From the sequence record OR352953.1: a stretch of 64,000 bases of DNA; one strand, given 5' to 3'. Shown here in pieces: positions 21,253-34,755 of this stretch. Position 1 is the first letter of the stretch. Every line of letters starts with the position of its first letter. This stretch comes from Escherichia phage AV123. The translations under genes were made by a program, and so were the position numbers. The notes under the pieces are model-generated. The model had not been told where the DNA came from, did not search any database, and worked only from the letters and a program-made list of their open reading frames with translations.

Positions 21253-23412
21253 ATGAAACAGGCTATTTTTACTGTAACTCGAAATACGAGAGTAAATGCC
21301 AGTTCATTCAGCTATAAGACCGTCGATGGAACGGCGGTCGCTGGTAGAGATTATGTAGCTAAACAGGGAACAGTAACGTTCCCTTCTGATGCAGATTCTG
21401 CTACTGTAGTGGTTGATGTATATGAACGTCCGGCAAACTCTTTAGATCTTTATTTTACTCTTGAGATTACTAGCATAAGTCAAAATAACATGATGATCAA
21501 TGAAGAAATTCGTTGTGTTATTACGACTAATCAATCGAATACAACCCCGCTAACTTGGCCTGTTGTGAAGTCTAGAATGTTTGATCCTAAGTTTTGGACA
21601 ATAGATTCTCAAGCAACAGAAAGTTGTTCTATTATCTCTAATGGTGATTCTTTCACAGCAAGAATGGTTAATAGGACAGTGGCTGGTCTTGCTGGGATTA
21701 TTTGGTCAACTTACGATAAATATGATCACAAAGGATTAGGCTACCAAGAACATTCTGACTTAAGTAAAGAGAAACTTTGGTTTAAAATGGAACTTAGTCA
21801 AGGTGTTCCTGGATTAAAAGAAGAAAAATTATTGCCATCCTTAACAGTGACACTGAAGGATGAAACAGTTCATTATGTATCTCTAAACTTTTATGCAGAA
21901 GAAGTTTCAGAGGATGGTAAAACAGCAACAATAAAATTAGATTTCTCAAATTTAAAATCTGGGCCAGAAAATGATATTGTTGTTGACACTACACAGATAG
22001 ATAATATGTTCTTCTCCTTGATCTCCACAAGGTATCAAGAAATTGAAGATATTATTCCTGTAGACAATGAGGATCTTTCCTTTAAGTTTACCATACTGGA
22101 ACCTGATACGGGTTATAGTATGATGAATATGGGTAATTTAAATGTTCCAGCACACACCATAAGAATGTGTACATCTTATGATGATATGTATAACCTTACC
22201 CCAGAGCGAGTTATTTCTAACACCTACAGATTAGGTTATAGGGATATGATTAACCACTATAATGGTATGTCACACTATTATCAATTTAGTTGGGACGCTG
22301 GCTCTAATAAATGGGCTTTAAACAGAACAGAATATTTAAACCCAGCAACAGAAGCCTGGTTTGATAACTTCCACGCTAATGCAAAAGCTATGGGTTACAC
22401 AGTAATGAACTCCTTAAGTTTTGAACTTATGAGTACAGTGTGTCCTGTAGAATGGGTACAACATACTTGGAATGATGATCTTGCTGCTACAGGTTATGAG
22501 CCACCAAGTTATGTTTTATCTCCTTCAATTGATGAAGGGATGAATTATTTACAAGGTGTAATAAATAAGATAGCTTCTATATCTGCTGCTAATGATCTTC
22601 CGGTTATTATTCAGGTTGGTGAACCGTGGTGGTGGTATAACACAGCTACTAATCTACCGTGTATTTATGATTATACAACCAAAGTTGCATTTAATAATGA
22701 AACTGGATTGTATGCACAAGATGTTGGTACAGTTAAAAATTATAAAACTGGTACACCATATGATGAATATTATGCATTCCTATCTAAAACATTAGGACTG
22801 CGTGTTGCTAAATTTGCAACAGATACCAGATTAGCATATCCTGGAGCTAAAGTTACATTGTTACCATTTGTGCCATCCATTTTAGGTAATGGTATGATGG
22901 AGTTTGTTAACTTCCCTAAAGATTATTATATCCCAGAAAACTTTGACTTTTATTGTTCAGAATGTTATGATTGGTTGTTGGAAGGTAAGATGGAAAGATC
23001 TTTTGACGCTATCACAATACCTAATGAGCAACTAGGTTTTAGTTATGATAAGATACATTATCTTGCAGGGTTTGTTCCAGATGCAACTCTAGCACCATTA
23101 TATGGCTTTGATCCTGAATCAGACTACAGAACATATTTGTGGAAAATGATTATAGGTAATATTGTATTGAATGACCAGAAGTTTGTTGGTTTATATCAAT
23201 ACATATGGGCTTATCCACAAATAATGCATGATTCAATAACTATTCTTAATTCAAAATCCCAAGTTTTTTATATGGGTAATGTGCCTTTGAATTGCTATTT
23301 GCAAGATATCACTCTTAAACAGGTAAATGTTACGATTGCTACTATAAGCGGAATTACATTAGCCACTAAATCTGGAGAAGATTTAGTAACAACACAAAAA
23401 TTTTATATATAG
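21253..23412 (+). CDS. tail-associated protein with N-terminal Calx-beta-like domain
   Basis: SFSYKTVDGTAVAGRDYVAKQGTVTFPSDADSATVVVDVYER matches the Calx-beta pattern (G.A..G.DY.....TL.F). Remaining 600 aa of unknown function. Confidence 0.4.
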   Translation: MKQAIFTVTRNTRVNASSFSYKTVDGTAVAGRDYVAKQGTVTFPSDADSATVVVDVYERPANSLDLYFTLEITSISQNNMMINEEIRCVITTNQSNTTPLTWPVVKSRMFDPKFWTIDSQATESCSIISNGDSFTARMVNRTVAGLAGIIWSTYDKYDHKGLGYQEHSDLSKEKLWFKMELSQGVPGLKEEKLLPSLTVTLKDETVHYVSLNFYAEEVSEDGKTATIKLDFSNLKSGPENDIVVDTTQIDNMFFSLISTRYQEIEDIIPVDNEDLSFKFTILEPDTGYSMMNMGNLNVPAHTIRMCTSYDDMYNLTPERVISNTYRLGYRDMINHYNGMSHYYQFSWDAGSNKWALNRTEYLNPATEAWFDNFHANAKAMGYTVMNSLSFELMSTVCPVEWVQHTWNDDLAATGYEPPSYVLSPSIDEGMNYLQGVINKIASISAANDLPVIIQVGEPWWWYNTATNLPCIYDYTTKVAFNNETGLYAQDVGTVKNYKTGTPYDEYYAFLSKTLGLRVAKFATDTRLAYPGAKVTLLPFVPSILGNGMMEFVNFPKDYYIPENFDFYCSECYDWLLEGKMERSFDAITIPNEQLGFSYDKIHYLAGFVPDATLAPLYGFDPESDYRTYLWKMIIGNIVLNDQKFVGLYQYIWAYPQIMHDSITILNSKSQVFYMGNVPLNCYLQDITLKQVNVTIATISGITLATKSGEDLVTTQKFYI

Positions 23413-23420
23413 GAGTAAAA

Positions 23421-25616
23421 ATGTCAACTACAATTACTAATTTACCCGAAACATCAAAAGTTAATGGTTCAGATTACCTGGTTTTAGATCAACCTAATAA
23501 AACTGTTAAAACCACAGTTTCCAACTTTCTTACTGACACTGGGGTGGTTTTAGCCACCCAGTTGAAAGATACAGGTGGAGCAGATTTAATACAATCCTCA
23601 AATGGTAATACTGTTCAGGAAGAGTTGAATAACAATCTTCTTAATGATCGTGAACTATGGCATCGTAGTCTTGCTGAGGCAGGGTTAACTCTTGTCAACG
23701 GTAGCTTTGAAGATGGCGCTATATTAAATAATAAGACGGATGCTGTTTGGTATATTGCAGGTGGACAGTGCTATACATGGGGTGGTGCTTTCCCTAAAGC
23801 TGTTCCCGCTGACTCAACCCCTGAAACATCCGGTGGTGTTGGGCCGGGTGCGTGGGTTTTGGTGAACGCCACCACCCAGCTACCTTATGTCACCCCTGAA
23901 ATTTATGGTGCAAAGGGTGATGGCGTAACTGACGACTTGACCGCGATACAAGCGGCATTAGATTCAGGTAAAGATGTAATTTTTTCTAAAAAATATACAG
24001 TATCAGCCCGTTTAACTTTGAAAACTAATAACCAGACTCTACAATTTATTAATGGGTCTTCTTTGATGTGCAATGTACCGACAGTTACCTTGCTGTATGG
24101 TTCTGGTGTTACAGGTGTCAAAATCTTTAATGCTCGTCTTGCCTCCAGTTCAGGTTCTACCAACACATATAATGGTTCTTGTGTTTGGTTAGATACATGC
24201 TCATATTGTTGCATTGAAGATTGTGTGTTTTCTAACTATAAAGCCTCGGCGGTATTTCTAAATAACTCAAGTTATTGTAATGTTGTGAGATGCACATTTT
24301 TGGGATCTCCGGGGGCTGCTGGTGACGTGACTATGTGGCGTTCCAATGTGGGGCACTTGATTTCTGATAACAATATGGTTTCTGGTTCAGATACTGCTAT
24401 TGTTTTGCAAACAATTGATGATGGGGACCATTCTAATGCCAACAGAATAGTTAACAATACTATTGAAAATTGTACGCGGTATGGTATAGTCGTTTATAAC
24501 AATCTGGAAACAAAGACAGGGACACTCACCAATACATTGGTACAAGGGAACACCATTAAGAATATTTATGGTAATGTTCTTAATACCACAACCCAAACAT
24601 ATACTTACGGATCAGGGATATACATTTTGTCTGCCGAAGGTATCAAAGTGATTGGGAATACCATAGATCTCACAAATCAAAACACCGATTCTACGACACT
24701 TTCACCAGCGTGTATTGGTGTGAACGCAACATCTGAAGCCATTATTTCCAATAATATAATTTCTCGTGGGGCTTATTATGGGATTATGATTTCAGATGCA
24801 CTACAGCAGGGGGTAGGGACTAACGCCAATTCTGAATCATTTAAACCAAATTCTACTGTCGTTGTTGCTAACAATATTATTAAAGCATGTTCCCGTAGCG
24901 GGTTGTATATCTTTAATCATCATAATGTTAAATGTGTGGGTAATATCACTATTTCCAACACACAAAATGGGGTTCTCACAGGTGCTGATAATGCGTTATA
25001 TCCAACTTTAAACAATATTGAAATTCTTTCGCACACTTCCAGAGAAAATACTATGGCTGGTCTGTCAATAACAAAATGTGATACCCCTACGATTGATGTA
25101 TCAGAATGTAAGGATAATTCGGGAGATGGAATCTATTGTTCTTCAATAAATGCTGTTATCAAAGTGGGGAGCGTAATTCGGAACAACAGAGGGATCGTGA
25201 TTGCAGCTTCCGGTTGTTCAATAATGGGCGGTAGAGTCACAGGGAATACTACAGGAATATTATCTACTCTTAGTTATAAGTTGATTTCTGCTTATGTAGC
25301 TGGTAATACTACAGATTATTCTGGGGATTTCGGTCCAATTTTGTCCTACAAAGGTAACTCTACACCATCAGTCAAAGACAGAGATACGATCATCCTGAGC
25401 GATGCCACTACCATAACCGATTTCACTGATGGTGTGTTGGGCCAGACAATTAAGATTAGGGCCACAGTTAATGGAACGGTTATTTCTCATAATTCATCCG
25501 GTATACGTCTTAAAGGGAATACCTCATTCTCTATGCAAGCTGGAGAAACATTGACGTTAACTAAATTTTACACGAACCAATGGGATGAAATATCTAGAAA
25601 AACCGTAACCGAATAA
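23421..25616 (+). CDS. tailspike protein with pectate-lyase-like right-handed beta-helix (putative polysaccharide depolymerase)
   Basis: N-terminal anchor motif (SDYLVLDQPNKTVKTTVSNFL), then YGAKGDGVTDDLTAIQAAL (pectate-lyase-3 type hallmark), then many repeats of the form NN.I..C.R.G consistent with beta-helix rungs. Confidence 0.65.
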   Translation: MSTTITNLPETSKVNGSDYLVLDQPNKTVKTTVSNFLTDTGVVLATQLKDTGGADLIQSSNGNTVQEELNNNLLNDRELWHRSLAEAGLTLVNGSFEDGAILNNKTDAVWYIAGGQCYTWGGAFPKAVPADSTPETSGGVGPGAWVLVNATTQLPYVTPEIYGAKGDGVTDDLTAIQAALDSGKDVIFSKKYTVSARLTLKTNNQTLQFINGSSLMCNVPTVTLLYGSGVTGVKIFNARLASSSGSTNTYNGSCVWLDTCSYCCIEDCVFSNYKASAVFLNNSSYCNVVRCTFLGSPGAAGDVTMWRSNVGHLISDNNMVSGSDTAIVLQTIDDGDHSNANRIVNNTIENCTRYGIVVYNNLETKTGTLTNTLVQGNTIKNIYGNVLNTTTQTYTYGSGIYILSAEGIKVIGNTIDLTNQNTDSTTLSPACIGVNATSEAIISNNIISRGAYYGIMISDALQQGVGTNANSESFKPNSTVVVANNIIKACSRSGLYIFNHHNVKCVGNITISNTQNGVLTGADNALYPTLNNIEILSHTSRENTMAGLSITKCDTPTIDVSECKDNSGDGIYCSSINAVIKVGSVIRNNRGIVIAASGCSIMGGRVTGNTTGILSTLSYKLISAYVAGNTTDYSGDFGPILSYKGNSTPSVKDRDTIILSDATTITDFTDGVLGQTIKIRATVNGTVISHNSSGIRLKGNTSFSMQAGETLTLTKFYTNQWDEISRKTVTE

Positions 25617-25672
25617 ATATTGATCAATAGGGGTTAAGTGCTCCTCTTCTTTTGATGCTATTTATCAAAACA

Positions 25673-25811
25673 GAGTATCATCACACCGCAATGTTTCAAA
25701 AACATTGACAACTTTGTGTGCACAAGTTATAATGCACACACGTTAATAGATGGTTTGTGTGGCTTGCCGCACTTTACGACACAACAAGAACAAGCGACTG
25801 AGTATCATCAC
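25673..25811 (+). repeat. 12 bp direct repeat pair (GAGTATCATCAC) flanking a promoter
   Basis: Identical 12-mers at 25673-25684 and 25800-25811. Confidence 0.5.
25705..25733 (+). promoter_or_regulatory. perfect-consensus sigma70 promoter (TTGACA-17-TATAAT)
   Basis: TTGACA at 25705-25710, 17 nt spacer containing the palindrome TGTGCACA, TATAAT at 25728-25733. Confidence 0.6.
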
Positions 25812-25838
25812 CCTGAAGGGGAAATCATCTCCTTCAGG
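25812..25838 (+). other. stem-loop (CCTGAAGG-N11-CCTTCAGG) in the transcribed leader
   Basis: 8 bp perfect inverted repeat. No downstream U tract, so probably not a terminator. Confidence 0.4.
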
Positions 25839-25874
25839 TGGTGTTCAGTGCATAACGTATAAAAGGAAAAGTAA

Positions 25875-26012
25875 ATGTTAAATTACACCACTAGTCGCCC
25901 AACAGTAGCTATCTCAGATCTTGATAGCACTGGGGTTGTAACTTTATCAAACGATCTTGTCGTGGATCAACCTGATGCCACGAGAAAGGCCTCTTTAGCC
26001 TCTGTTCTGTAG
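25875..26012 (+). CDS. small ORF (45 aa) resembling a tailspike N-terminal anchor domain; possible gene remnant or small adaptor
   Basis: MLNYTTSRPTVAISDLDSTGVVTLSNDLVVDQPDATRKASLASVL shares the anchor motif with the N-termini of the 17895 and 23421 proteins. RBS AAAAGGAAAAG. Below the ORF-track size cut-off. Confidence 0.35.
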   Translation: MLNYTTSRPTVAISDLDSTGVVTLSNDLVVDQPDATRKASLASVL

Positions 26013-29996: not shown

Positions 29997-30338
29997 ATGG
30001 AGCTAACAGAAGTATGGGATATCGCTAAAGAGGCGATTATCCCTCTTATTGGCGTAATCTGGGTGGTCTTCAAACAGAAGATAGATGATATGGCAAGTGA
30101 TTTGGATAAAATGGAAGACAAATACCGCGAACTAGAAAAGAAGTTGGTGTTTGTTGAATCCACTTATGCTACCAAAGCAGAACTTGCTCAAATGCTTAAC
30201 CAGATCAACTCTACATTAATGGCAAATAATACTGCCTTAGAACAGAAGATTGAAAAAATAATGGATTTAAAAAATGCTCCTGTTCAATTAATGCTAGAGG
30301 AGATTACAAAGCGCACACAAAGTAAGGACAAAAATTAA
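29997..30338 (+). CDS. membrane-anchored coiled-coil protein (function unknown)
   Basis: 113 aa with N-terminal hydrophobic segment IIPLIGVIWVVF followed by charged coiled-coil-like sequence. Confidence 0.35.
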   Translation: MELTEVWDIAKEAIIPLIGVIWVVFKQKIDDMASDLDKMEDKYRELEKKLVFVESTYATKAELAQMLNQINSTLMANNTALEQKIEKIMDLKNAPVQLMLEEITKRTQSKDKN

Positions 30339-32752
30339 TGGCGAATTTTCCAACATATCCTGCTACGACACTAGAACAAGGTGTTGATCTGGTTATATTC
30401 TCGTCTAACCAGATGCATGATGTTATTAATGGAGATGCTACAGCAACTGTAGAAACCGAAACAGGTTTAATACCTACACTGCGTAAAGCACTTGTTGATA
30501 ACTTCTTCTTTAAGAGTCCTGTTGCTTGGTCAGCAGGATCAACTGAAACTGTATTTAACCAGTTACGTTATTTTGAAAACGGTATCTTGAGTGGGTACTA
30601 TTATGCCCCATCTGCCACTACTGCTAACCCTGTACCTATGCAGGGTACACCTGTAGGAGACAGTAACTGGACTCTGTACGCTCTTAAAACTGAACAGTTA
30701 GCTTCAGATGTGTATCCTTGGTATTTTAAAGGTGCTACAGGATATGAAACAGAAATCAGTCCTCCTTATATCTTTGATAATGCTATTGTCACCATTAACG
30801 GTGTAATTCAGATTCAAGGTGAAGCATTTACTATCAAAGATAGTAAAATTATTCTGGCAGAACCATTAGGTTTAGATCCGTCTACTGGTCTACCTAACAA
30901 ATTGTTTGCTTTTATTGGTAAAACAACAGCCTCTACTTCCTACGTAGAGAAAAACCTTTTGTCATCTACCACTGGTGCAGCAATGATTGGTCTTCCATCT
31001 GGAGGCAACCTGTTACAAGCTCAATACTTTGTAACGCCTGAGCAGTTTGGTGCAATTGGTGATGGAGTTACCGATGATACTCAAGCAATTTTAAAAACTA
31101 TTACTTTCGCTAACACGAATAACATTCAAGTACGTGCAGATAAGAATTATAGATTCACAAGCTCAATTGCTATGTCTGGTATTCGTTGGTATGGTGGTAC
31201 ATTCACTGGTAACGGTGGAACAATGATTTCTACTGTGTCCTGTTGGATGGAAAACGTTCGCTTTGAAAAATGTTATGTTAAGATGTTAGGTGGTGATTGC
31301 CGATTCTATCGTAATATCTTCTCCAACGCAACATCTACAGCAGCATTCTTAATGCAAGCAATGACAAGTGAAGGTACGTTGGACTTCAGTTACAACGAAA
31401 TGTATGGTTGTAAATATGCGATCCTGCAACAAGGTACTGGAGAAGTAATGACCTACGGGCGTTACTCTAACAACTATATTCACGATATTAAAGGTGATGC
31501 TATTGAACTTAACGTAGTTCAAAAACACTACACTGAAGGTTTGATTATCGAGAATAACCACATTGCTAACGTAGATGCTTCTGGACAAGGTGCAAACTGG
31601 GGTATTGGTATTGGTGTAGCAGGTAGTGGCCCATATGGTGTTGATGTTCCTGATTCACAATATGTACGTAATTTCAGTATCGTTGGGAATAGGGTTTACA
31701 ATTGCCGTCAATGTTTACACGTTGAAATGGGTAAAAACTTCACAATACGTGATAATGAAGTTTATCCTAACACAGCAGTTTCAACAGGTACAGGTTTAAC
31801 TACTTGTGGTGTTGCATTATACGGATGCCAAGATTTTGAAGTTGATGGTTTAACTGGTTATCTGCTTAATGATCCATCTGTTTCAACACGCATGGTCTTT
31901 ATTGACTGGGGTGTTAACAGTGGAAGATATGCGGGGCCACCAATTAACTTTACAATTAAGAATTTGGATATTCCAGAATCTTCAATTGAGATTGCAACAT
32001 CTGGATCAGATGACTGGGAAAACTCTACAATTGTTAGTAATATCAATTGTAATGTTTTTAAATGGCGTGGGCTACCATCTAGCTCTACCTTTAATAATAT
32101 TCGTTGCCGTAGTATTGACTTTATTGGTCAACACGGAAGCGGAGAAGGAAGTGGTGGCGGTTTCTATACTCGCAGCCAATTCACGTATATGAAGTGGGTA
32201 GGATGTACAGCACTTAGCGGAGATGAAACAACAGTTTCTTTTGCTAAAATCTACACTGATCGTTGCGATCAGGTTGGAAATAACTTTGGTGTTCCAACTG
32301 CTGTTGATGGAACAGGTCATCGTGGGCCAGTTTTAACTACTATTTCTGAACAATATTTTACAACTTATGATGAATTCCCAGGTGGGCGTGAATTCCCTAC
32401 TGGAACAGTTATTCATTGTGCAAGCGGTAAAAAACATGTTGTTACAGTAGGTGGTGCTTTCTTTAGTGCCAACGAGAAAATAAAAGCAACTGTTACAGGT
32501 CAAACCTATCTACAGTCTAATGCTTTAAACTGGGCTAGTAATGGCTACGCTAAAGCAGCAGGTACTAAGATTGTTATTCCAGGTGCAGGTGCAAATGGCG
32601 GCGATCTTGTGACAACTATAGCACGTGCTACATATGTGACAAATAGTTTGTACACAATAGATATTGCAGATCCAATTGTAACACCTACAGCAGAGAATAC
32701 ACAAATTAAAGCTCTGAACCCTGTTACTTTTGTTACTGTCAATAATGCTTAA
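30338..32752 (+). CDS. tailspike protein with pectate-lyase-like beta-helix (putative polysaccharide depolymerase)
   Basis: 804 aa containing FGAIGDGVTDDTQAILKTI (pectate-lyase-3 type hallmark) and downstream repeats typical of beta-helix rungs. Confidence 0.65.
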   Translation: MANFPTYPATTLEQGVDLVIFSSNQMHDVINGDATATVETETGLIPTLRKALVDNFFFKSPVAWSAGSTETVFNQLRYFENGILSGYYYAPSATTANPVPMQGTPVGDSNWTLYALKTEQLASDVYPWYFKGATGYETEISPPYIFDNAIVTINGVIQIQGEAFTIKDSKIILAEPLGLDPSTGLPNKLFAFIGKTTASTSYVEKNLLSSTTGAAMIGLPSGGNLLQAQYFVTPEQFGAIGDGVTDDTQAILKTITFANTNNIQVRADKNYRFTSSIAMSGIRWYGGTFTGNGGTMISTVSCWMENVRFEKCYVKMLGGDCRFYRNIFSNATSTAAFLMQAMTSEGTLDFSYNEMYGCKYAILQQGTGEVMTYGRYSNNYIHDIKGDAIELNVVQKHYTEGLIIENNHIANVDASGQGANWGIGIGVAGSGPYGVDVPDSQYVRNFSIVGNRVYNCRQCLHVEMGKNFTIRDNEVYPNTAVSTGTGLTTCGVALYGCQDFEVDGLTGYLLNDPSVSTRMVFIDWGVNSGRYAGPPINFTIKNLDIPESSIEIATSGSDDWENSTIVSNINCNVFKWRGLPSSSTFNNIRCRSIDFIGQHGSGEGSGGGFYTRSQFTYMKWVGCTALSGDETTVSFAKIYTDRCDQVGNNFGVPTAVDGTGHRGPVLTTISEQYFTTYDEFPGGREFPTGTVIHCASGKKHVVTVGGAFFSANEKIKATVTGQTYLQSNALNWASNGYAKAAGTKIVIPGAGANGGDLVTTIARATYVTNSLYTIDIADPIVTPTAENTQIKALNPVTFVTVNNA

Positions 32753-32793: not shown

Positions 32794-34755
32794 GTGATTT
32801 TAACACGTCCAAATAGTGCCATTGCAGACATGGTAGAGTCTCGCTATAGAAAGCGTAGAAGTTTTGCAAGTGGTTTTACCTTAAGAGATGCTCGTGAAGC
32901 ATTGCTCTTTGAAACTGACGGTAACTACTATCAGTGGAAAGGTTCTCTACCTAAAGTTGTACCTGCTAACTCTACTCCTACATCTACTGGAGGGATTTCA
33001 GATACAGCTTGGAAAAATGTGGGTAATGCAGATGACATTGCTCAAATAGAATCAGAATTAGATGCTATTGAAGCTGAAATTGAAGATCTTAGAGAATCCA
33101 TTCCAGAAGCTGGTAAATCAGCTTACCAGATTGCCGTAGACAATGGTTTCCAAGGTACTGAGACAGAGTGGTTGGCTTCTTTAAAAGGTGATCCAGGTGC
33201 TCCATTAAAGCTGCTAGGGACGCTATCTAATACCAACCAATTACCTACAACTGGAAACAATGCAGGAGATGCATGGATTGTAGGCGAGAATATGTATGCT
33301 TGGGATGGTACTGCTTGGAGAAAAGTAAACTCACAGGGGCCAGAAGGTAAATCGGCTTATCAAGTTTGGCTTGCAGCAGGAAACCAAGGTACAGAACTAG
33401 ATTATCTTGCTTCAATTAAAGGTGATAAAGGGGAGCCTGGCCCAGAGGGGCCACAAGGTGTACCAGGTAACAATGCTAATGGTTTTGATTACCAAGGTGC
33501 AGCTAATTCCGTTTCAGATCTTCCTTCTGCATCTCCTGGAAACACATCTCAAGCATGGAATATTGGTACATATCTATACGTGTCAAACGGTGTAGAATGG
33601 ATCAATATGGGCGCTATAGTGGGGCCAAAAGGAGATAAAGGCGACAAAGGAGATAAGGGTAACACTGGTGATTCAGCTTATCAAGTCTGGTTAAACGCTG
33701 GTAACGTTGGTACTATTGACGAATATATTGCCTCTCTGAAAGGAGAAAAAGGTGATAAGGGAGATAAGGGTGATCAAGGTGAGCAGGGTATACAAGGCTT
33801 GACGGGGCCAACTGGTGCAGGGTTGACCATTATTGATATTCTGACTGACACTTCTGAACTACCACAAACTGGAGAAGATGGTGATGGTTATCTGATCAAT
33901 AATGAACTTTGGGTTTGGTTGCAAGGAGCCACACAGTGGACAAATGTTGGTCGTTTAGCTGGTACTCCAATCACTGCAAAAGGACACGTTGCGTCTGCAA
34001 GTGCACTTCCTCCTACATCCAATTACGGTGATGCTTATTTGACGGAAGATACAGGTCATCTTTACATTTACACCTATGATGAACAAACTCAAACTGCTGA
34101 ATATGTAGATATGGGTAGTTTGAAAGGTGATAAGGGTGAGAAAGGTGACGCTGGTACTAACGGTACAGACGGTGCTACTTGGATTGTTAAAACAACAGAT
34201 CCAATCTCTAGTGATGGTAAACAAGGTGATTATGCCTTTAATATCTCCACTGGCGAGGTGTTCTTAAAAACATCTGCAACTGTCTGGACTTCTCAAGGTA
34301 CACTACCTAGCATCACAGATGCACCTAGTGACGGTAAGATCTATGCTCGTAAAGATGGAGCATGGGAAGAACTAACTAGTTCTGTAGATGGTCAAGATAT
34401 AGTTCCAACAAAAGTAACAGCTAATTTTATAGAGGTTACAGCATACACCAACAACTCTGTTACAGGGGACTGGACACCTCCAGGAACACATAACATGAAT
34501 GTGTTGAATCTTACTGGTAACTCTACTATAAAAGCATGGCCTGGTGTCGAAGATAGCACAAAACCTAAACCATTCTCTGCAATAGTTTATCTTATCCAAG
34601 ATGCCACTGGGGGTCATACTGTTACTTTAGATCCATCTTACAAAGTAATTGGTTCTAGTGATATTAATACAGATCCTAACGGAGTAACAATACTACAACT
34701 AACATATTGTGGTGTTGGTGATTACGTGGATGCTATTGTTGCTAAACGCACATAA
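32794..34755 (+). CDS. tail fibre protein with collagen-like Gly-X-Y repeats and three tandem modules
   Basis: 653 aa, GTG start with AAGGAG RBS. G-X-Y runs (GDKGEPGPEGPQGVPG; GPKGDKGDKGDKGNTGD; GEKGDKGDKGDQGEQGIQGLTGPTG; GDKGEKGDAGTNGTDG). A threefold repeated module (KSAYQ..G.QGTE..WLASLKGD..; LPTTG..GDAW). Confidence 0.6.
   Translation: MILTRPNSAIADMVESRYRKRRSFASGFTLRDAREALLFETDGNYYQWKGSLPKVVPANSTPTSTGGISDTAWKNVGNADDIAQIESELDAIEAEIEDLRESIPEAGKSAYQIAVDNGFQGTETEWLASLKGDPGAPLKLLGTLSNTNQLPTTGNNAGDAWIVGENMYAWDGTAWRKVNSQGPEGKSAYQVWLAAGNQGTELDYLASIKGDKGEPGPEGPQGVPGNNANGFDYQGAANSVSDLPSASPGNTSQAWNIGTYLYVSNGVEWINMGAIVGPKGDKGDKGDKGNTGDSAYQVWLNAGNVGTIDEYIASLKGEKGDKGDKGDQGEQGIQGLTGPTGAGLTIIDILTDTSELPQTGEDGDGYLINNELWVWLQGATQWTNVGRLAGTPITAKGHVASASALPPTSNYGDAYLTEDTGHLYIYTYDEQTQTAEYVDMGSLKGDKGEKGDAGTNGTDGATWIVKTTDPISSDGKQGDYAFNISTGEVFLKTSATVWTSQGTLPSITDAPSDGKIYARKDGAWEELTSSVDGQDIVPTKVTANFIEVTAYTNNSVTGDWTPPGTHNMNVLNLTGNSTIKAWPGVEDSTKPKPFSAIVYLIQDATGGHTVTLDPSYKVIGSSDINTDPNGVTILQLTYCGVGDYVDAIVAKRT

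Follow-up and report, generated by a model that had tools for sequence, protein, structure and literature searches.

A motif shared by a tailspike and a collagen-like fibre of Escherichia phage AV123 is the signature of the known tailspike head domain D2

A stretch of 64,000 nucleotides (nt) from Escherichia phage AV123 (sequence record OR352953.1; the whole stretch is termed the window here) encodes a tailspike and a collagen-like tail fibre that have one peptide motif in common. This shared motif is the signature of Tail_spike_N (PF18668), a domain that has already been catalogued and whose structure has been solved; it is also termed D2 or TD2 of the tailspike head. Overall, D2 is an ordinary domain that is already known; the motif was correctly observed, a docking role is unsupported for D2, and a role in module swapping is supported. 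We put at roughly 75% the probability that the motif represents D2 as a structural junction on which bodies are mounted, with virion attachment provided by other elements. The window belongs to a phi92/phAPEC8-like Escherichia coli myophage of the Stephanstirmvirinae, and its tail-fibre cluster is 98% identical to that of phage PaulScherrer, with the exception of one cassette. The two proteins and their shared domain are as follows.

23421-25616, + strand: tailspike open reading frame (ORF), 731 amino acids (aa), with Pfam matches to Tail_spike_N and Beta_helix, in the slot of phi92 gp143.
23694-23864, + strand: Tail_spike_N/D2 of the spike, aa 92-148, which holds the motif interval 23751-23861.
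32794-34755, + strand: collagen-like lateral tail fibre, 653 aa, GTG start, with Pfam matches to Tail_spike_N, Collagen and Fibritin_C.
32824-33027, + strand: Tail_spike_N/D2 of the fibre, aa 11-78 (Pfam, AlphaFold2, Foldseek), which holds the motif interval 32908-33021.

The initial annotation reported a motif of about 35 aa in two otherwise unrelated receptor-binding proteins, and both peptides are present at those positions, i.e. at aa 111-147 of the spike ORF (nt 23751-23861) and at aa 39-76 of the fibre ORF (nt 32908-33021). Pairwise BLASTP of the full-length proteins aligns spike aa 95-148 with fibre aa 23-76 (E = 4e-9) and reveals no second aligning segment. The Smith-Waterman score of the full-length proteins is 126, compared with 49.6 +/- 6.8 for shuffled sequences (n = 300, maximum 81; z = 11.3). 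The annotation would have been overturned by similarity no greater than chance; the BLASTP E value, the z score and the Pfam scores given below all place it above chance. A six-frame regular-expression scan of the 64-kb window finds the motif at two sites only, those in the spike and the fibre, and Pfam does not detect PF18668 in the nine further tail/baseplate ORFs and three other fibre proteins that were tested. The two proteins are indeed otherwise unrelated: a right-handed beta-helix forms the body of the spike, whereas the fibre has collagen-like sequence and repeats of fibritin type, and its PaulScherrer orthologue is annotated as a 'lateral tail fiber protein with type I collagen domain'. 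The motif is real and forms part of a somewhat larger homologous domain, which covers approximately spike aa 92-148 and fibre aa 11/18-78.

The Pfam scores to PF18668 are 63.5 bits for the spike (E 1.9e-17) and 75.5 bits for the fibre (E 3.6e-21), both above the curated gathering threshold of 25 bits. The full name of the family is 'Tail spike TSP1/Gp66 receptor binding N-terminal domain'. The isolated D2 segments score 70-78 bits, and PF18668 is their sole Pfam match even at E <= 10. Sequence matches of both proteins in the PDB are confined to the D2 segment. These include the CBA120 tailspikes TSP1 (4OJ5, aa 99-157), TSP3 (5W6F/6NW9) and TSP4 (5W6H), G7C gp63.1 (4QNL), Shigella phage B2 Gp48 (9D84), Sf11 gp13 (9OCC), as well as 8X8M, 9VVR and 9LNA; 9D80 is matched by the spike only. 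The pattern noted in the initial annotation is the family consensus of PF18668, as drawn from the best 150 representatives of the census described below. Protein-level selection maintains the fold signature of the family, which is made up of the conserved F, G, Y-x-W-x-G, L-P-K-x-V, S-T-P, G-G and W.

D2 is a unit of about 60 residues that was first seen in the head of CBA120 TSP1. The CBA120 papers place it at aa 97-154 of the tailspike 'head', followed by a helical neck and the catalytic body, and describe its architecture as an alpha-helix and then an antiparallel beta-sandwich (PMC3966878, PMC6517402). In crystal structures of homologues, D2 is a trimer on the spike axis, situated between the virion-attachment element and the neck/body (PMC3966878, PMC6517402). 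AlphaFold2 predictions, made for monomers, show in both window proteins a helix and a small antiparallel beta-sandwich that superpose on solved D2. In the spike model, block means of the predicted local distance difference test (pLDDT) are 70-91 over aa 81-150, with a helix at aa 62-86 and six strands; aa 1-60 are predicted at low confidence. The N-terminus of the fibre has a mean pLDDT of 79, with values of 83-92 in D2 and strands between aa 19 and 77. Fold searches match both models to the D2 head subdomain only of solved tailspikes. G7C gp63.1 (4QNL) is the best Foldseek match for both, the head of gp66 is also comparable, and the fibre model matches D2 structures with a Foldseek probability of 1.0 and 38-41% identity. 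The position of the domain is also that of D2, before the beta-helix in the spike and before a neck helix in the fibre. By analogy with the homologues, D2 of the window proteins would pack as a trimer.

The spike and the fibre share D2 with the heads of CBA120 TSP1, TSP3 and TSP4, but they differ from these in what surrounds it. In CBA120, D2 is preceded by D1, which consists of a three-helix-bundle core with a metal site and a beta-sandwich. D1 was not found in the spike, where PDB matches to CBA120 begin at aa ~90-91 and fold searches align only ~66-84 residues; aa 1-91 are instead a subfamily-specific anchor peptide and a helix. The fibre also lacks D1 and has just a 17-residue leader before D2. 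The CBA120 neck (aa 155-168 in TSP3; PMC6517402) has a counterpart in the fibre but none in the spike, whose body motif LPYV..GAKGDG begins at aa ~153, about five residues past D2. The PaulScherrer spike allele retains a neck-like segment, GDASLRKEL. The two fibre elements that flank D2 are:

32794-32844, + strand: conserved leader of the fibre, aa 1-17, before D2 (leader conservation; AlphaFold2 helix at aa 8-17).
33028-33099, + strand: coiled-coil-like alpha-helical neck past D2 of the fibre, aa 79-102 (AlphaFold2 helix).

The two D2 copies lie 9 kb apart in one tail-fibre gene cluster, and this proximity might suggest that one of the two genes of this genome recently acquired the domain from the other, by duplication or gene conversion. 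Such an origin is very improbable, because the copies, when codon-aligned, are 52% identical in DNA and their longest exact run is 7 nt. At the protein level they are 41% identical (22 of 54 residues), and third codon positions also match at 22 of 54. In addition, each copy is nearer to copies of other phages than to its partner in the genome. A chance resemblance is just as improbable in the face of the E value of 4e-9, the z score of 11.3 and the Pfam scores. The copies are thus old, diverged paralogues, and with such low DNA identity the spike and fibre genes offer no substrate for mutual homologous recombination.

The view of D2 as a junction draws on the comparison with PaulScherrer, where homology breaks at the C-terminal edge of the motif. 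The spike is 86% identical to PaulScherrer bas60_0027 over aa 1-148 and unalignable beyond. At the DNA level, blastn homology of 96.6% extends as far as nt 23865, in codon 149 and 4 nt past the motif interval, and returns at nt 26004 (98.6%). The segment in between is:

23866-26003, + strand: cassette exchanged relative to PaulScherrer (blastn), consisting of the spike body from codon ~150 and ~390 nt downstream.

About 90 phages of the subfamily have only aa 1-148/152 in common with the spike, and the match ends at aa 148 or 152 in 21 of the 27 subfamily relatives sharing the head, among those listed. A homologue search with spike aa 1-162 gives only 19 short fragments, and seven database proteins from it align through D2 and then diverge into different continuations; a related-locus search in viral contigs gives a single locus. 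The spike is therefore a natural chimera of a phi92-type head (aa 1-148) and a foreign beta-helix body (~aa 150-731) related to depolymerase-type spikes of Klebsiella podophages. D2 is on the anchor side, and the seam is at its C-terminal edge (GAWVLV / NATTQ / LPYV). The nucleotide identity of 23421-23865 to PaulScherrer (L001 14422-14870) declines from 0.98 in codons 41-70 to 0.85 in codons 91-120 and 0.68 in codons 131-150. This gradual decay over the D2-coding part, in place of an abrupt drop, suggests either that D2 has recombined internally more than once or that it has co-adapted with the body.

The body region is 99-100% identical in phages AV125 and 'cardinal' only, and AV125 is so over the full length (aa 1-731). 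Among the matches listed, spikes of Klebsiella Przondovirus podophages (Whistle, IME264, PRA1340, Kpn17) match aa 150-728 only, with about 50% identity. Whistle has the same body behind a leader of ~25 aa, and K16PH164C3, also at about 50% identity, has it behind a T7-type tail-fibre anchor, in both cases without D2. The body represents a cross-genus, cross-morphotype transfer with Klebsiella podophages, and its likeness to the Klebsiella spikes hints that the receptor may be a polysaccharide that resembles capsule and is related to one of the Klebsiella K types. K16PH164C3 was also considered as a D2-bearing carrier of this body, and this was ruled out: Pfam finds the T7-type anchor and no PF18668, and its tblastn match from aa 127 represents a weak extension only in the upstream part. 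With its junction at codon 149, the chimera adds a neat new case to a known kind of module swap.

A census of the family shows the same pattern on a wider scale. An exhaustive phmmer search with the D2 copy of the fibre (E <= 1e-3) yields 1,759 cluster representatives, and anchors and bodies were clustered in the best 150 of these. These 150 representatives fall into 26 clusters by their upstream anchors and into 73 by their downstream bodies. A single anchor class is found with 41 bodies, a T7-type anchor with 14, and the class with leader plus D2 with 11; conversely, 18 bodies are found on more than one anchor class. The median end point of the last D2 copy is 28% of the way along the protein. 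The initial annotation had proposed, as one of two interpretations, a 'shared fold element enabling module swapping', and this proposal is borne out by the break at the C-terminal edge of the motif and by the few anchors combined with many bodies.

It should be pointed out that the module-swap interpretation, although supported, is already published for related spikes (PMC8432352, PMC9965104, bioRxiv 10.1101/542787). An engineered chimera of CBA120 TSP3 joined after Ala157 is functional (PMC9965104). In G7C-like phages the N-terminal part is conserved, and C-terminal bodies are swapped naturally among isolates behind the conserved heads (bioRxiv 10.1101/542787). In Kuttervirus, a conserved head motif at the end of TD1 was proposed as a recombination site, and D2 travels with the body (PMC8432352). 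By analogy with these homologues, D2 would be a self-contained structural junction that mounts very different receptor-binding bodies on a given anchor, and its edges are the places where receptor-binding bodies get exchanged between phages.

D2 is also found in tandem. In 75 of 152 sampled D2-bearing proteins there are 2-5 tandem copies with a spacing of ~75-80 residues (e.g. P0028, P0031, P0035 and P0122), and the spike and the fibre carry one copy each. Stalk extension and avidity of a binding module are possible meanings of these arrays. One protein of 724 aa, P0020, has three D2 hits that are identical and spaced at exactly 241 residues; they probably reflect a repeat concatenated during assembly and not a real architecture.

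The other interpretation in the initial annotation was that of a common docking site, i.e. the spike and the fibre would bind the same baseplate or adaptor protein via the motif. We consider this unlikely, and the alleles found in the gp143 slot weigh most directly on it. The spike of the window begins with the following element:

23421-23582, + strand: slot-constant N-terminal anchor peptide of the spike, aa 1-54, near-invariant in a four-way alignment.

This peptide is near-invariant among the spikes of the window, PaulScherrer, nieznany and BME3. Among the listed alleles with a match that stops at aa 54, including those of phi92 (gp143) and phAPEC8, its identity is 88.9-94.4%, and these alleles diverge completely beyond that point. 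Three alleles of this slot, the phi92 gp143 endosialidase, nieznany gp226 and the BME3 spike, have only aa 1-54 in common with the window spike and lack D2; Pfam does not find PF18668 in phi92 gp143, nor in nieznany gp226 and the BME3 spike even at E <= 1. In phi92 gp143 the same anchor (91% identity) is followed by a linker of ~20 residues, the endosialidase N-terminal extension and a beta-propeller. Of 60 sampled records, 28 show a second class of breakpoints in this slot, where homology ends at aa 42-65. A protein can therefore occupy the gp143 slot without D2, and by analogy aa 1-54 are likely to be the attachment element of the spike.

Known systems also place attachment N-terminal to D2. 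Sf11 gp13, from a Shigella siphophage, begins with an attachment element that is followed by the same domain at aa ~64-133; in situ this spike is held by N-terminal helices at aa 4-59, before the D2-like segment (PMC12724387). The Sf11 anchor, a three-helix bundle on the adaptor helix of the distal tail protein, is unrelated to spike aa 1-54. In CBA120, the surface assigned to binding TSP4 XD3 is the N-terminal face of D1 (PMC8825819). G7C is an N4-like podophage in which gp63.1 is docked on gp66, and no counterparts of these partners were identified in the window. Furthermore, D2 is found on spikes of podo-, sipho- and myophages behind at least 26 different anchors, which makes one shared partner impossible, and the two copies of the window have just 22 of 54 residues identical. 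There are also points that favour docking through D2. The fibre has merely ~17 aa before the domain, and its leader plus D2 are kept on at least 11 different bodies; CBA120 TSP3 without its whole head (construct 156-627) fails to join the complex (PMC8825819). With so short a leader, the leader and D2 together must carry the attachment of the fibre. The leader, xLTRPNSxxxDxExxxYRKRRSF, is conserved in 20 'D2-first' proteins with different bodies, and by analogy the fibre is probably attached by these ~17 residues, either alone or together with the proximal face of D2. Even so, D2 does not provide a docking element common to spike and fibre.

A carbohydrate-binding role is a further alternative, in which D2 would be a module similar to carbohydrate-binding module (CBM) families 5/12 and would help the spike head, in an accessory way, to hold on to surface polysaccharide with low affinity. 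The reported nearest non-phage fold to D2 is CBM12 of Bacillus circulans chitinase A1 (1ED7), a small antiparallel beta-sandwich. However, there is no detectable sequence relationship between the two, carbohydrate binding by D2 is not known, and none has been reported for tailspike heads (PMC3966878). No CBM family profile matches the isolated D2 segments (Pfam, E <= 10, with PF18668 alone reported), and the likeness to the 1ED7 fold was not recovered above noise in this analysis. The carbohydrate-binding role is improbable. There is a slim chance that D2 is more than a passive junction, either as an autonomous, universal fibre-to-fibre plug of leader plus D2 (the 'D2-first' class, to which the collagen-like fibre belongs) or through a CBM12-like weak affinity for glycans. 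If true, the plug could help identify the unassigned fibre II of phi92-like phages, and weak glycan affinity would explain the extreme conservation of D2 and its arrays of 2-5 tandem copies.

Several points count against a purely structural junction with attachment elsewhere. In CBA120, binding needed the whole D1-D2 head in the constructs tested, and D2 alone was never removed. In the fibre, the leader and D2 are the sole conserved N-terminal module, and thus D2 may contribute to docking there. The very strong amino acid conservation in distant phages, together with the tandem arrays, could reflect an extra function. The Kuttervirus seam is before D2 and not after it (PMC8432352); D2 is therefore not tied to one side of the exchange, and both of its edges serve as seams. 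The structure predictions are those of monomers. Finally, the anchor roles proposed here are inferred from homologues.

The value of these findings is for annotation and engineering rather than discovery. The presence of PF18668/D2 in a phage fibre gene marks the border between the virion-attachment part and the host-specificity part. Codon ~149 of the spike in the gp143 slot is a natural junction used by evolution, and new bodies could be grafted there. The search for docking determinants is redirected to the peptide at aa 1-54 of the spike and the 17-residue leader of the fibre. Such a search could help resolve the attachments of fibres I and II that cryo-electron microscopy of phi92, which assigned the gp143 endosialidase to fibre I, left open.

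The anchor peptide of the spike, ITNLPETSKVNGSDYLVLDQPNKTVKTTVSNFL, recurs at ~39% identity in two other ORFs of the window:

17919-18032, + strand: anchor-peptide copy, aa 9-46 of the 157-aa ORF 17895-18368 (BLASTP, 39% identity to spike aa 5-42, E 1.7e-4).
25875-26012, + strand: 45-aa stub ORF with the anchor-peptide motif at aa 13-45 (BLASTP, 39% identity to spike aa 5-37, E 1e-5).

This N-terminal peptide of ~40 aa, found in the spike, ORF 17895 and the stub, is a better candidate than D2 for a common docking element. The stub is situated in the exchanged cassette 23866-26003, and the 3' homology boundary at 26004 is at its end; the stub may be what is left of the 5' end of a spike gene, either a displaced one or that of the donor. 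A PaulScherrer 'tailspike protein' of 101 aa was rejected as its counterpart, as the two are unrelated.

Two neighbouring genes deserve mention. The 719-aa protein encoded at 21253-23412 has a TIM barrel of PF23845, 'non-contractile tail sheath protein' (E 1e-81), an N-terminal domain of PF23844 and a Calx-beta domain. It is a homologue of phi92 gp142. The tail of this phage is nevertheless contractile, and a separate gene encodes its sheath; the 719-aa protein could be part of the fibre I arm. The 804-aa colanidase-like fibre encoded at 30338-32752 has a C-terminal TSP_Ig-like domain and no D2. Its aa 231-251 are 71% identical to spike aa 156-176 (E 1.5e-4), and this stretch (PE.YGA.GDGVTDD) is the cap motif of pectate-lyase-type beta-helices.

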